Below are positions 19,070-53,382 of a stretch of 64,000 bases of DNA, one piece after another. This DNA is from a virus (Duplodnaviria > Caudoviricetes). A program made the position numbers and the translations under genes. The stretch's first letter is position 1, and each line of letters starts with the position of its first letter. The DNA is taken from IMG/VR virus record IMGVR_UViG_3300047557_002530; one strand, written 5' to 3'. The notes beneath the pieces are model-generated. The model had not been told where the DNA came from. It ran no database searches and was given only the letters and a program-made list of their open reading frames with translations.

Positions 19070-19759
19070 ATGAGAGTAGATCTTCATAACTTTTTTCAAT
19101 ATTATGATCCAAAGAATCCTAAGCACGTTGCAGCAGTTGAGCAACTAGAAGTAGATCTTAAGGATTCTCCACTTCTTGACGATAGTTCTAATTGGGTCAA
19201 AATTTACAGGACAAAACCAACTGTTCCTGGTGTTCTATCTGTTCCTTTTTATCCACAGACAGATAATTACAGAGATGCGCAAAGAACTTGCAATTCATCT
19301 GCTTGTGCTATGTGCTTAGAGTATTTCAAACCAGGCACTCTCCAAGGAGCAAAGGGCGATGATGCCTACGTTCGAAAAGTTTTTGCGATTGGTGATTCAA
19401 CTGATCACACCGTCCAGACAAAAGTTTTGGAAGGTTATGGAATTAAGTCACGCTTTAGTTACAATTTATCTTTTTCTGATCTTGATCGTGAGTTATCTGC
19501 TGGGAGACCTGTCGTTATTGGTATCTTGCACCGCGGCTCTTTATCTAATCCTACTGGTGGGCACATGGTTGTAGTGATTGGTAAGAGAGGTGAGGATTAT
19601 GTTGTGAATGATCCCTATGGTTCTCTCAATGATGGTTACACTGGACCTGTAACAAATGGTAAGGGTGCAGTCTATAAGAAGTCTGATCTTACTTATCGTT
19701 GGTTAGAAAGAGGTAAAGATAAGACTGGTTGGGGTCGTATCTTTGACGCAAAAAAGTAG
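19070..19759 (+). CDS. peptidase C39-like protein with extra N-terminal domain
   Basis: QTDN...RTCNSSACAM (Q, C), GGHMVVVIG (H), VNDPYG (D). Confidence 0.85.
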   Translation: MRVDLHNFFQYYDPKNPKHVAAVEQLEVDLKDSPLLDDSSNWVKIYRTKPTVPGVLSVPFYPQTDNYRDAQRTCNSSACAMCLEYFKPGTLQGAKGDDAYVRKVFAIGDSTDHTVQTKVLEGYGIKSRFSYNLSFSDLDRELSAGRPVVIGILHRGSLSNPTGGHMVVVIGKRGEDYVVNDPYGSLNDGYTGPVTNGKGAVYKKSDLTYRWLERGKDKTGWGRIFDAKK

Positions 19760-19806
19760 AAACGCCAACTAACATTAATAATGCCAATGAAGTGCCGTTG
19801 GTTGGC
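19750..19806 (+). promoter_or_regulatory. putative -1 programmed ribosomal frameshift signal
   Basis: A_AAA_AAG (19750-19756), 7-nt spacer, stem GCCAACTAAC/GTTGGTTGGC (19764-19773/19797-19806). Confidence 0.7.
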
Positions 19807-20250
19807 ATTAATTTAATTAAAGAGTTTGAAGGATGTCATTTGAATGCTTATCCAGATCCTTTAACAAAAGGACCACCTATTACAATAGGTTGGGGAAGCA
19901 CTAAAGACTTTGACGGAACACCATTTAAAATAGGTAGAGTGATTACTCAAAAGTATGCAGACACTCTACTTGAGTTTGATTTAAAGAATAGATTTTTACC
20001 AGCACTTCAAAGAATACCTTATTGGAGCGAAATGAATGAAAATCAACAAGGCACAATTCTTAGCTTTGCTTATAATCTTGGTGCTAATTTTTATGGAAGC
20101 TCTAATTTTAATACGATAACTAGAGTTCTTAAAAACAAAGAATGGACTAAAGTACCTGATGCCTTATATCTTTATCATAACCCAGGAACAAGTGTAGAAG
20201 CAGGATTGAAGAGGAGGAGAGTTGCAGAAGGTAAACTTTGGAGTTCTTAA
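19759..20250 (+). CDS. GH24 phage lysozyme domain (frame open from 19747; GTG at 19792 has no clear RBS)
   Basis: LIKEFEGCHLNAYPDP...ITIGWG, SFAYNLG, GLKRRRVAEG. Confidence 0.9.
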   Translation, partial: ETPTNINNANEVPLVGINLIKEFEGCHLNAYPDPLTKGPPITIGWGSTKDFDGTPFKIGRVITQKYADTLLEFDLKNRFLPALQRIPYWSEMNENQQGTILSFAYNLGANFYGSSNFNTITRVLKNKEWTKVPDALYLYHNPGTSVEAGLKRRRVAEGKLWSS

Positions 20251-20492
20251 TCGTCCATCTTTGCTTTTAATCCAAGCAATGCCGTAAACAAAGTAAACAA
20301 AGCATCATATCCTCTTCTTTCAGATTCTTTGCAATCTAAGGGAGGGGAATTTTTTAATCCACCTAGTGCATCTGCTCTTTCCATAGAACCTGGAACCATA
20401 AAGTTACAGTTGGCAAAAGTAACACCAACGTATCCAAGTGTTCCTACTACAATAACGACGATTAACTTATCAATTAGTTTTAAGTTTTTCAT
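20247..20492 (-). CDS. small two-TM membrane protein convergent with the lysozyme
   Basis: 81 aa with hydrophobic N- and C-terminal segments. Confidence 0.65.
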   Translation of the reverse strand: MKNLKLIDKLIVVIVVGTLGYVGVTFANCNFMVPGSMERADALGGLKNSPPLDCKESERRGYDALFTLFTALLGLKAKMDD

Positions 20493-20680
20493 CTTCCTTC
20501 TTGTTTATGAATCCAAGTTTTCAATTCGTGCAAATATTGCCTAAGTTCATCTGCTTTACGAAGATGCCACGAATCACCACTCTTGAAATACTCTTGAGTG
20601 TGATTATCAATTGCTTTTAGAATATTATGTATTGGTGCGTTCCATCGCTCACGCTTCGGAGTATTCCATTCGCGTGGCAT
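20489..20680 (-). CDS. hypothetical protein
   Basis: 63-aa ORF with RBS (GAGG), coupled to its neighbour. Confidence 0.7.
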   Translation of the reverse strand: MPREWNTPKRERWNAPIHNILKAIDNHTQEYFKSGDSWHLRKADELRQYLHELKTWIHKQEGR

Positions 20681-20968: not shown

Positions 20969-21062
20969 ACCGAGACCTATGGGTGTATAAAAACGTCTCT
21001 CATACCCACAGTGGAGGGTGCTGTGGGGAATAATCGTATCAGTTCGTCCCCCCGAACTTTTA
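20969..21062 (+). ncRNA. PhotoRC-II-like psbA leader RNA
   Basis: GAGAC...GTCTC stem, CCCACAG/CTGTGGG hairpin around GAGGGTG, AGTTCG/CGAACT hairpin, directly 5' of psbA. Confidence 0.7.
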
Positions 21063-21080
21063 ACTAACTCTCTTAAACAA

Positions 21081-22160
21081 ATGACTGCTACAATTTCACG
21101 TCAACAACAATCGAATACTTGGGAACAATTCTGCAACTGGGTTACTAGCACTGATAACCGTCTCTATGTAGGTTGGTTCGGAGTCCTGATGATTCCAACA
21201 TTGCTCGCCGCAACAATCTGCTTCATCATCGCATTTGTCGGTGCTCCCCCTGTAGACATTGATGGAATCCGTGAACCAGTCGCTGGTTCTCTAATGTATG
21301 GAAACAACATCATCTCTGGTGCTGTTATTCCTTCGTCCAACGCGATTGGACTGCACTTCTACCCCATCTGGGAAGCTGCTTCACTTGATGAGTGGCTTTA
21401 CAACGGCGGACCTTTCCAACTGGTAGTGTTCCACTTCCTCATCGGCATCTATGCTTATATGGGTCGTGAATGGGAACTCTCATACCGCCTAGGTATGCGT
21501 CCTTGGATCTGTGTTGCTTACTCTGCACCTGTTGCTGCTGCCAGCGCAGTGTTCCTAGTCTATCCTTTCGGTCAAGGTTCTTTCTCTGATGCAATGCCTC
21601 TGGGTATCTCTGGTACCTTCAACTACATGCTTGTTTTCCAGGCAGAACATAACATCCTGATGCACCCCTTCCACATGCTTGGAGTTGCTGGTGTCTTCGG
21701 TGGTTCACTGTTCTCTGCAATGCACGGTTCTCTAGTTACTTCCTCACTGGTTCGTGAAACCACCGAGCAAGAGTCGCAGAACTATGGTTACAAGTTCGGT
21801 CAAGAAGAAGAGACTTATAACATCGTTGCAGCACACGGTTATTTCGGTCGCCTGATCTTCCAATATGCTTCCTTCAATAACTCTCGTTCGCTACACTTCT
21901 TCCTTGCTGCTTGGCCTGTTGTCGGTATCTGGTTCACTGCTCTTGGTGTTAGCACCATGGCCTTTAACTTAAATGGCTTTAATTTCAACCAGTCTCTGCT
22001 TGATAGTCAGGGTCGTGTAGTTAACACCTGGGCTGATGTTCTTAACCGTGCTGGACTGGGAATGGAAGTGATGCACGAGAGAAATGCACATAACTTTCCT
22101 TTGGACCTGGCTGCTGCCGAAGCAACTCCTGTTGCTCTAACTGCACCTTCTATCGGTTGA
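21081..22160 (+). CDS. psbA: photosystem II D1 protein (intronless, 359 aa)
   Basis: [35 protein letters not shown]; start at ATG 21081. Confidence 0.99.
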
Positions 22161-52477: not shown

Positions 52478-52915
52478 ATGAAAATATATGGTCCTTACAC
52501 AGCAAAAGACGGAAGACAAAGAATTGTTCTCTATGAAAATGGTAAAAGAACAACAGTTTCTTATCCAAAATATCTTTTAGAACAAAAACTTGGTAGACCA
52601 CTTTTACCTGATGAAACCTGCGACCATATAGATGGTGATTTTACCAACAACTCACTTGACAACTTACAAGTTTTGAGTAGAGTAGATAACATAAGGAAAC
52701 ACGCAGCAGTACATAACAGAGCAGAAATGATTTGTTGTGTATGTCCTGAATGTGATAAATCTTTCTATAAACCAGCAAGAGACATTAGACATAACAATCT
52801 AAAACAACAAAAAGTTGGTCCATTTTGTTCTAAATCTTGTGCTGGAAAATATAGTCAAAGGTTAAATAAAACTTTTAGAGGAGGAAAACCAAATCTAAAC
52901 TACAAGCCCGTGTGA
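52478..52915 (+). CDS. HNH endonuclease with C-terminal Zn finger, overlapping a tRNA
   Basis: CDHIDGDFTNNSLDNLQVL..DN; CPECDKSF...FCSKSC; stop TGA at 52913-52915 inside the tRNA. Confidence 0.88.
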   Translation: MKIYGPYTAKDGRQRIVLYENGKRTTVSYPKYLLEQKLGRPLLPDETCDHIDGDFTNNSLDNLQVLSRVDNIRKHAAVHNRAEMICCVCPECDKSFYKPARDIRHNNLKQQKVGPFCSKSCAGKYSQRLNKTFRGGKPNLNYKPV

Positions 52916-52979
52916 CCCAGCGGAATGAGGTTCTCGACTTAAAATCGAGCAGTCGGCGGTTCGAATCCGCCCACGGGTA
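52906..52979 (+). tRNA. tRNA with TAA anticodon (nominally Leu), short variable loop
   Basis: GCCCGTG/CACGGGT acceptor, CTCGA-CTTAAAA-TCGAG anticodon arm, GGCGG-TTCGAAT-CCGCC T arm. Confidence 0.85.
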
Positions 52980-53021
52980 TGAGGTTCTTCCTCTAAATAA
53001 ACAAAAGTAAAGGACTATTCT

Positions 53022-53291
53022 ATGAAATACAGAATAGATGCCAGATACGTTTGGTATAATCGCGGAACTCAAATAGTTCTATTGTACTTTATAAATCAGA
53101 TTCCTTTTACTTTTGACGATCTTCCAAAAGACTCTTTGTTCGATTTGGAACTGATCAAATTGGCAGATAACGAAAGAAGGTTTGAACCAGAAGACCTTTA
53201 TCAAGCATCATACTATTTGATGCTTGAAGAATGTCATCCACTCTTATATGAGTTGGAACTGGAAAATCCAGAAATGTTACCTGCTGATTAA
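53022..53291 (+). CDS. hypothetical cyanophage protein
   Basis: 89-aa ORF with TAAATA and RBS AAGGA upstream. Confidence 0.75.
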   Translation: MKYRIDARYVWYNRGTQIVLLYFINQIPFTFDDLPKDSLFDLELIKLADNERRFEPEDLYQASYYLMLEECHPLLYELELENPEMLPAD

Positions 53292-53292
53292 T

Positions 53293-53364
53293 GCCCTTGT
53301 AGCTCAGTGGTAGAGCAACGGTTTTGTAAACCGTTGGTCGCTGGTTCAAATCCAGTCGGGGGCT
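53293..53364 (+). tRNA. tRNA-Thr(TGT)
   Basis: GCCCTTG/CGGGGGC acceptor, AGCTCAGTGGTAGAGC D arm, ACGGT-TTTGTAA-ACCGT anticodon arm. Confidence 0.95.
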
Positions 53365-53382
53365 CTGAGTTCTATAACTCCA

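Follow-up and report, generated by a model that had tools for sequence, protein, structure and literature searches.

A slippery heptamer and a covarying hairpin point to programmed -1 frameshifting between a C39-like peptidase and a GH24 lysozyme in T4-like cyanophages

Introduction

How is a phage lysozyme made when its open reading frame (ORF) has no clear start of its own and lies one base out of register with the peptidase gene that ends just before it? The question is raised by positions 19070 to 20250 of a 64,000-nucleotide (nt) stretch, here called the window, of IMG/VR virus record IMGVR_UViG_3300047557_002530, where a C39-like peptidase is followed in the -1 frame by a GH24 lysozyme. 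The full record is a 92-kb viral contig, about 43% of a genome. Its source is a T4-like cyanophage of fresh water whose nearest named relatives are Kyanoviridae phages of Synechococcus, and judged by these relatives it belongs to the family Kyanoviridae. The initial annotation proposed that one locus yields both the peptidase alone and a peptidase-lysozyme fusion. A comparison of heptamer, linker, stem and starts among relatives supports that proposal, and we consider it very probable that a conserved -1 programmed frameshift joins the peptidase to the lysozyme at this locus.

Results

The peptidase-lysozyme junction in the window

The elements of the junction are as follows.

19070-19759, plus strand: 0-frame peptidase ORF, 229 amino acids (aa), ending ...RIFDAKK before TAG (GAC GCA AAA AAG TAG)
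19750-19756, plus strand: slippery heptamer A_AAA_AAG, the codons AAA AAG after the A of GCA
19757-19759, plus strand: 0-frame stop TAG, directly 3' of the heptamer, ending the peptidase-only product
19756-19818, plus strand: linker, read in the -1 frame only, VETPTNINNANEVPLVGINLI; its first canonical starts are GTG 19792 and TTG 19798
19764-19806, plus strand: hairpin 1, arms GCCAACTAAC (19764-19773) and GTTGGTTGGC (19797-19806)
19779-19810, plus strand: competing hairpin 2, arms 19779-19787 and 19802-19810, reusing part of the 3' arm of hairpin 1
19819-20250, plus strand: -1-frame lysozyme domain of the GH24 family (T4/P22-type), beginning with the KEFEG motif (catalytic Glu codon 19828-19830) and ending at TAA 20248-20250

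Direct reading (GCA AAA AAG TAG) bears out that A_AAA_AAG stands immediately before the peptidase stop. Read in the 0 frame, the heptamer has the X_XXY_YYZ register, and it lies within the overlap of both frames. The -1 frame has a TGA at 19744-19746, is then open from 19747 to the TAA at 20248-20250 and reads ...KKVETPTNINNANEVPLVGINLIKEFEG..., with the TAG stop sitting inside its GTA GAA (Val-Glu). That this frame leads from 19747 into a GH24 lysozyme, as initially annotated, was confirmed by the reading together with Pfam, in which the lysozyme domain matches Phage_lysozyme (PF00959) at 73.4 bits against a cut-off of 22.3. Residues 56-183 of the peptidase match Peptidase_C39_2 (PF13529) at 47 bits against a cut-off of 24. 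The GTG had been taken as the only lysozyme start; this was incorrect, as TTG 19798 is also in the lysozyme frame, and the two codons lie 35 and 41 nt after the peptidase stop.

Conservation of the heptamer among relatives

Three viral-contig scans and one metagenome-contig scan gave more than 200 loci, in which both domains were located by tblastn and the junctions were classified by a script. The main counts refer to 117 distinct junctions from phage genomes and viral contigs, and a further metagenome scan agreed with their pattern. A slippery heptamer was present in 73/73 close -1-frame junctions without a start codon overlapping the peptidase stop, namely A_AAA_AAG in 71 and T_TTT_TTT in the two of the S-CAM7 clade. 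A close -1-frame lysozyme lacking both a heptamer and a stop-overlapping start was found in 0/117 junctions.

In the 71 junctions with A_AAA_AAG, the heptamer is placed at the peptidase stop or one codon earlier. The codon before AAA AAG is always NNA (GCA 35, GTA 31, ACA 3, GAA 1, ATA 1) and encodes any of five residues (A, V, T, E, I), while AAA and AAG are each kept in 71/71. The heptamer is followed directly by TAG in 59 cases and by TAA in 6; the other 6 have a sense codon and then a stop. Synonymous variation is unrestricted at the Gly, Arg, Ile and Asp codons nearby. As controls, third-base A occurs in 34% of the GCN/GTN/ACN codons elsewhere in the same genes, and at most other conserved Lys columns both AAA and AAG are in use. 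Considering that the wobble A, AAA and AAG are fixed while the residue and the neighbouring codons vary, the constraint on the heptamer is, on this codon evidence, one on nucleotides and not on protein. Conservation of A_AAA_AAG in 71 of 73 junctions thus goes beyond what the protein needs, and since heptamer, frame relation and stem recur in 71 distinct junctions, their recurrence is beyond chance.

Linker, frame relation and lysozyme starts

In the lysozyme frame the linker contains no stop at 73/73 junctions; the corresponding figures for the remaining two frames are 1/73 and 13/73. Measured from the stop to KEFEG it has 11 lengths between 38 and 83 nt, every one of which keeps the -1 relation, so the frame relation is invariant and the linker open at all 11 lengths. 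No ATG, GTG or TTG precedes the catalytic motif/KEFEG in the lysozyme frame at 42/71 junctions. Within the subclade of the window, the position of GTG 19792 is occupied by GTG, ATT, GTT or TTG, a pattern by which the GTG behaves as an ordinary Val/Ile/Leu codon. The remark in the initial annotation that this GTG has no clear Shine-Dalgarno sequence is weak evidence by itself, the codon not being conserved in the subclade. Across relatives, the lysozyme ORF is by this reading dependent on the shift; in the window the dependence is not absolute, given the GTG and the TTG.

Hairpins downstream of the heptamer

Hairpin 1 has 10 base pairs (bp) with one G.U, a spacer of 7 nt, a loop of 23 nt and a predicted energy of -13.7 kcal/mol, which matches the stem first described at 19764-19773/19797-19806. 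The alternative pairing described with it, 19779-19787 with 19802-19810, is also real. The start of hairpin 2 is 22 nt downstream of the heptamer, that of the extended minimum-energy helix 17 nt. When the window sequence is folded, the minimum free energy is -15.4 and the pair probability is about 0.04 for stem 1 and about 0.95 for hairpin 2. The initially proposed stem is the one conserved in relatives, but it is not the minimum-energy fold in the window. The complementarity of hairpin 2 is kept in two relatives, L013 and L014, when read by eye.

At 89-91% of junctions a contiguous stem of 9 bp or more begins 3-8 nt downstream of the heptamer; such a stem follows 6% of 9,342 control positions in the same genes. 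The junction hairpins have a median energy of -14.5 kcal/mol and a median z-score of -3.4, and they comprise 55 different arm pairs. Cognate arms reach at least 9 bp in 92% of cases, whereas chimeric arm combinations do so in 19%. RNAalifold gave no consensus when all subfamilies were pooled, because the 3' arm occupies three registers one codon apart; the set was therefore split and each register aligned separately. Pairing in the three registers reaches 91.3%, 92.0% and 89.7% and drops to 13-50% once the partner is displaced by 1-3 columns. Every register holds 4-5 compensatory pairs with changes on both sides (4 in that of the window's subclade, paired at 89.7%). For two register sets the covariation score is higher than in all 500 shuffles, and for the third it is higher than in all but 11. 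Stem covariation is thus found in all three registers. A grouping of stems by linker length mixed the registers and inflated the mismatch count, and was not relied on.

The linkers of the window's subclade (19764-19806; L073:2193-2291; L016:2187-2276) are Thr/Asn-rich and contain a variable number of CCAAC-type units. Each unit can pair with the same GTTGGTTGG 3' arm, giving alternative hairpins and whole-codon length steps.

Relatives with other gene layouts

The 117 junctions fall into the following layouts.

71 junctions: -1 frame with A_AAA_AAG
2 junctions: -1 frame with T_TTT_TTT (S-CAM7 clade)
9 junctions: heptamer plus a start overlapping the stop (5 with a hairpin and an apparently incidental GTG/TTG; 4 S-SRM01-like)
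1 junction (L166): S-SRM01-like, overlapping start, heptamer lost
16 junctions: ATGA overlap, own ATG and a 60-aa N-terminal lysozyme extension
17 junctions: in frame
1 junction: intervening gene

In S-PM2, the peptidase ends GAT GCA AAA AAG TAA, and ATG, GTG and TTG are all absent ahead of the catalytic motif of the -1-frame lysozyme; the 'putative lysin' of its GenBank entry is truncated to 73 aa and starts after the catalytic Glu (L002:2175-2672). In S-CAM7, the peptidase ends GTT TTT TTT CCA CAG TAG, the -1-frame lysozyme again lacks a start, and the GenBank 'lysin' of 90 aa likewise starts after the catalytic Glu (L088:1880-2417). The candidate slippery site of this clade, T_TTT_TTT, lies two codons upstream and is followed after 5 nt by an 8-bp hairpin.

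The layouts in which the lysozyme has another route of expression serve as natural controls. S-SRM01 keeps the heptamer, has its own ATG overlapping the stop (ATGA) and has no hairpin; its clade has no stem of at least 9 bp and has lost the heptamer in 1/5 (L166, GCA GCA AAG). The own-ATG clade with the N-terminal extension has a stem of at least 9 bp in 0/16 and the heptamer in 0/16. The natural in-frame fusions that the initial annotation had suggested looking for were found, with the same domain order, in ACG-2014f and its marine clade. ACG-2014f encodes a single in-frame protein of 405 aa (gp211), and PHROG 3617 is a profile of 405 positions that spans both halves. In the in-frame marine clade (...AKVEEKKS...), a stem of at least 9 bp occurs in 0/15, the Lys codons vary, and A_AAA_AAG is limited to four closely related ACG-2014f-type sequences. 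Because in-frame and own-ATG relatives are without both, the heptamer and the hairpin track, as far as these genomes go, the need for a shift.

Several further arrangements were seen. In S-CREM1, PSS2 and S-CBS2 one gene is annotated, whose peptidase match falls in its C-terminal half, and the translation of S-CREM1 has the lysozyme first and the peptidase second. In MA10 (L091:1183-2451), the peptidase is joined in frame to another C-terminal domain, GH19-like by motif recognition only, which suggests module swapping at the peptidase boundary. ACG-2014f (L087:1900-1960) has GCA AAA AAG with a 6-bp GGAGGG/CCCTCC stem, and a -1 shift there meets a TGA at once. A dnaX-like inverse in ACG-2014f, in which the shift would give the peptidase alone, was considered and dropped, the heptamer not being conserved in the rest of the in-frame clade.

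Origin of the frame change and variants of the A-run

The in-frame clade reads GCN AAR GTA GAA (Ala-Lys-Val-Glu) and the frameshift clade GCA AAA AAG TAG AA. On this comparison, a gain of two A's would by itself shift the frame and produce both the heptamer and the TAG, and would also account for the Val-Glu that follows in the -1 frame. The predicted junction ...AKKVE... resembles the ...AKVEE... of the in-frame clade. The S-CAM7 clade suggests a second origin at the same domain boundary, because it changes frame two codons earlier and on a T-run.

The six-A state is found in 103/104 A_AAA_AAG loci; in the exception, L197, the seventh A comes from the preceding GAA codon. Five contigs of two lineages have seven A's, are in frame, encode the exact predicted ...KKVE... 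junction and keep the hairpin. One of the six-A loci, L188, has nearly the same sequence as a seven-A contig, L150.

Decoding tRNA

A_AAA_AAG is most prone to shifting where a single tRNA-Lys(UUU) reads both Lys codons (PMC5009743). In the phage tRNA cluster just upstream of the window there is a tRNA-Lys(UUU) but none for Lys(CUU). A likely relative of the host is Cyanobium sp. N.Huapi 1H5, with a psbA 92% identical to the phage gene; among the 39 tRNAs found in it, Lys(UUU) is the sole Lys tRNA.

Proposed mechanism

Based on these observations, ribosomes would translate the peptidase, with its N-terminal and C39_2 domains, and arrive at A_AAA_AAG (19750-19756). The majority would terminate at the adjacent TAG and release the 229-aa peptidase. 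In a minority, the two tRNA-Lys(UUU) would re-pair one base back, from AAA AAG to AAA AAA, a slip that the RNA hairpin at the mRNA entrance would assist. The slipped ribosomes would then read on from GTA GAA, cross the 21 codons of the linker and enter the GH24 lysozyme; the resulting fusion would have about 393 aa and the junction ...FDAKKVETPTN.... Most of the lysozyme, and in the majority of relatives all of it, would be produced as the C-terminal portion of this fusion. The sequences show the signals with their conservation, covariation and distribution in relatives; from these we infer the slip, with its efficiency and its role in lysis.

Weighing the frameshift against other explanations

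Several observations weigh against a frameshift at this junction. No convincing upstream Shine-Dalgarno-like stimulator was found there; the sole Shine-Dalgarno-like candidate, a GGGG 15 nt upstream, lies inside conserved Gly-Trp-Gly codons and is inseparable from coding constraint. Folding predictions for the window sequence favour hairpin 2 over the conserved stem 1 at equilibrium, and hairpin 2 starts too far downstream for a classical stimulator. The seven-A contigs could be homopolymer assembly errors and not real in-frame variants. The host tRNA set was read from an incomplete Cyanobium assembly, and Cyanobium may not be the host. Finally, GTG 19792 and TTG 19798 in the lysozyme frame permit some independent initiation in this phage.

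The last point leads to a first alternative, two separate genes, in which the lysozyme starts at GTG 19792 or TTG 19798, perhaps by reinitiation once ribosomes have terminated at TAG, and the heptamer just encodes a conserved Lys-Lys tail. Both codons exist in frame downstream of the stop, and related phages run the pair as coupled genes with ATGA overlaps. We nevertheless regard this as improbable: the GTG is not conserved in its own subclade, 42 of the 71 junctions have no canonical start at all, and the invariant wobble A with AAA and AAG, the linker open at 11 lengths and the covarying hairpin are left unexplained. Moreover, relatives with their own start are without the hairpin, and those with the N-terminal extension are also without the heptamer. 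Some of the lysozyme of this phage may come from starts at GTG or TTG; such starts fail to explain the pattern across the family.

The fusion might instead be formed at the level of RNA, if RNA polymerase stuttered on the six A's and added one A to give an in-frame mRNA. The seven-A contigs do encode the in-frame fusion, and the S-CAM7 clade has a run of eight T's. Six A's are, however, shorter than the runs known to give efficient transcriptional slippage in bacteria, and the conserved hairpin 3-8 nt downstream and the fixed final G of AAG are features of a ribosomal shift. One metatranscriptome contig spans the six A's with no indel, which counts weakly, since contigs hide minor variants. 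Taken together, polymerase stuttering is very improbable here. Less credible still, to the point of being nearly negligible, is that the lysozyme is a decaying, unexpressed frameshifted gene or the six-A run an assembly error. Homopolymers are hotspots of mutation and sequencing error, and the near-twins L188 and L150 differ in this way. Against that stand the constancy of the six A's over the 103 loci and 71 distinct junctions, the presence of the stretch in Logan contigs of DNA runs from several studies, with a contig crossing the A-run unchanged in the single DNA run aligned to it, and the lysozyme itself, which is intact, free of stops and 64-100% identical in amino acids. A programmed -1 shift therefore remains our strongly preferred account.

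Domains and predicted function of the two products

The peptidase ORF matches positions 1-235 of PHROG 3617. A papain-type triad is invariant in 16 relatives, with Cys in TCNSS, His in GGHM and Asp in NDPYG. Against PDB sequences the peptidase has no significant relative, its sole match having an E-value of 0.76. In the lysozyme, the Glu and Asp of EFEGCHLNAYPD are nine residues apart, the spacing found in T4 lysozyme, and the domain is the sole PF00959 match in the 92-kb record. From the domain content and the 'endolysin' labels in relatives, it is a reasonable inference that the peptidase-lysozyme pair is an endolysin. No holin was identified for the locus in the record (92 kb, about 43% complete).

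For structure prediction, the natural in-frame relative L150 was modelled with AlphaFold, giving a model of moderate confidence overall (predicted local distance difference test, pLDDT, 69; predicted template modelling score, pTM, 0.43). Its lysozyme domain is confident and matches the GH24 endolysins PHAb10 (9kbq) and AbLys1 (8app), 2anv, and the P22 and T4 lysozymes. The peptidase part gave weak fold matches to the C39-like peptidase 3erv and the papain-like cyanobacterial enzyme 2bu3. Neither a dependable arrangement of the domains nor a fold for the N-terminal one came out of the model.

The N-terminal ~55 aa of the peptidase match no family. This domain (~50 aa; window 19070-19234) has the pattern DLHNFF.YYD..NP.H..AV..LE...W..IYR and was also located at L004:2174-2845, L004:2947-3615 and L017:2184-2798. 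In DSL-LC02 and DSL-LC03, where the genes are separate, it is found on both the peptidase and the lysozyme. A relation to the 60-aa extension of the own-ATG lysozymes was considered; BLASTP gave just a 21-residue match (E-value 0.028), and the two may be related.

Genomic context

The same stretch also turned up in Logan contigs from the DNA runs of several studies, and most of these runs carry a freshwater-metagenome label. The window also carries psbA (21018-22160), a PstS-like phosphate-binding protein and a peroxiredoxin. A large array of 22 tRNAs, tRNA-Lys(UUU) among them, lies within the 9.6 kb before the window (L246:3681-9411), and 4 further tRNAs are inside it (224-389 and 52906-53365). 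Within the phage tRNA cluster, ARAGORN called a permuted transfer-messenger RNA (tmRNA)-like gene (L246:5402-5702) with the tag ANNIVAFSRSNTTALV; the call coincides in part with one for tRNA-Leu and is possibly false.

Two small convergent ORFs adjoin the 3' side of the lysozyme.

20247-20492, minus strand: small ORF
20489-20680, minus strand: small ORF

The 81-aa member of the pair has a hydrophobic N-terminal segment, and neither has a Pfam or PHROG match. S-SRM01 and S-PM2 have ORFs in the same position and orientation after the lysozyme, one of which, in S-PM2, shares ...PPLDCKESERRGY.... It is possible that these small ORFs encode lysis accessory proteins.

Discussion

The mechanism proposed here is itself textbook, as known from dnaX, the IS3 family and phage G/GT. 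E. coli dnaX (tau/gamma) has the same A_AAA_AAG, a single tRNA-Lys(UUU), a nearby 3' stem-loop and two products that share their N-terminal part. It differs in that the dnaX shift leads to the shorter product and the shift here to the longer one, in that dnaX, like IS911, has an upstream Shine-Dalgarno-like stimulator, which is not obligatory and has no counterpart found here, and in its cargo, a replication protein in place of a predicted cell-wall hydrolase. In the OrfA/OrfAB of the IS3 family (IS911) and the phage tail chaperones G/GT, the 0-frame stop lies shortly beyond the slippery site, and the minority of ribosomes that shift by -1 add a second functional domain, as they would here; the proteins and their roles differ. 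Those shifts are widespread and conserved in mobile elements and phages.

The nearest known protein is gp211 of ACG-2014f (PHROG 3617), which has the same three modules in the same order, a peptidase 60% identical and a linker homologous to the trans-frame junction. In contrast to the window, the ACG-2014f type has one continuous ORF with no hairpin and a heptamer that is not conserved in its clade, and it yields the fusion only. Two products from one lysis gene are also known from enterococcal Lys170, clostridial CTP1L and mycobacteriophage Ms6 LysA, in which an in-frame internal start is used. They are alike in giving a full-length and a shorter product at a set ratio; their extra product is the C-terminal part, whereas here it would be the N-terminal part, made by ribosomal frameshifting. 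A search of the full-text literature and a 2016 compendium, which left most subscription journals uncovered, returned no report of frameshifting in a cyanophage or in any endolysin or wall-hydrolase gene, in line with the initial view that the system is not one already described.

Why the frame change should be kept is a more speculative matter. One tentative reading, which we hold as possible and rather less than even in likelihood, is that selection favours two products at this boundary, beyond the mere rescue of an indel. As parts of that same reading, the frameshift would have arisen at least twice, via A_AAA_AAG and via T_TTT_TTT; the length of the A-run would form a natural switch, in frame with four A's, shifted with six and in frame again with seven; the shift would set the stoichiometry of endolysin chains that share an N-terminal domain; and the phage tRNA-Lys(UUU) may help to tune the ratio.

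For annotation, the consequence is a correction: the GenBank 'lysin' entries of S-PM2 and S-CAM7 are truncated, and the lysozyme ORF is without a start in most relatives. For the study of recoding, the family offers a natural experiment, as close relatives carry the pair as a frameshift, an in-frame fusion or coupled separate genes, and among these layouts the heptamer with hairpin appears only where needed. Since S-PM2 and Synechococcus WH7803 are cultured, the prediction is directly testable. The lysis of T4-like cyanophages is poorly understood, yet it controls the release of carbon from very abundant phototrophs. If the frameshift is real, this would be the first endolysin-type enzyme with its composition set by ribosomal frameshifting.

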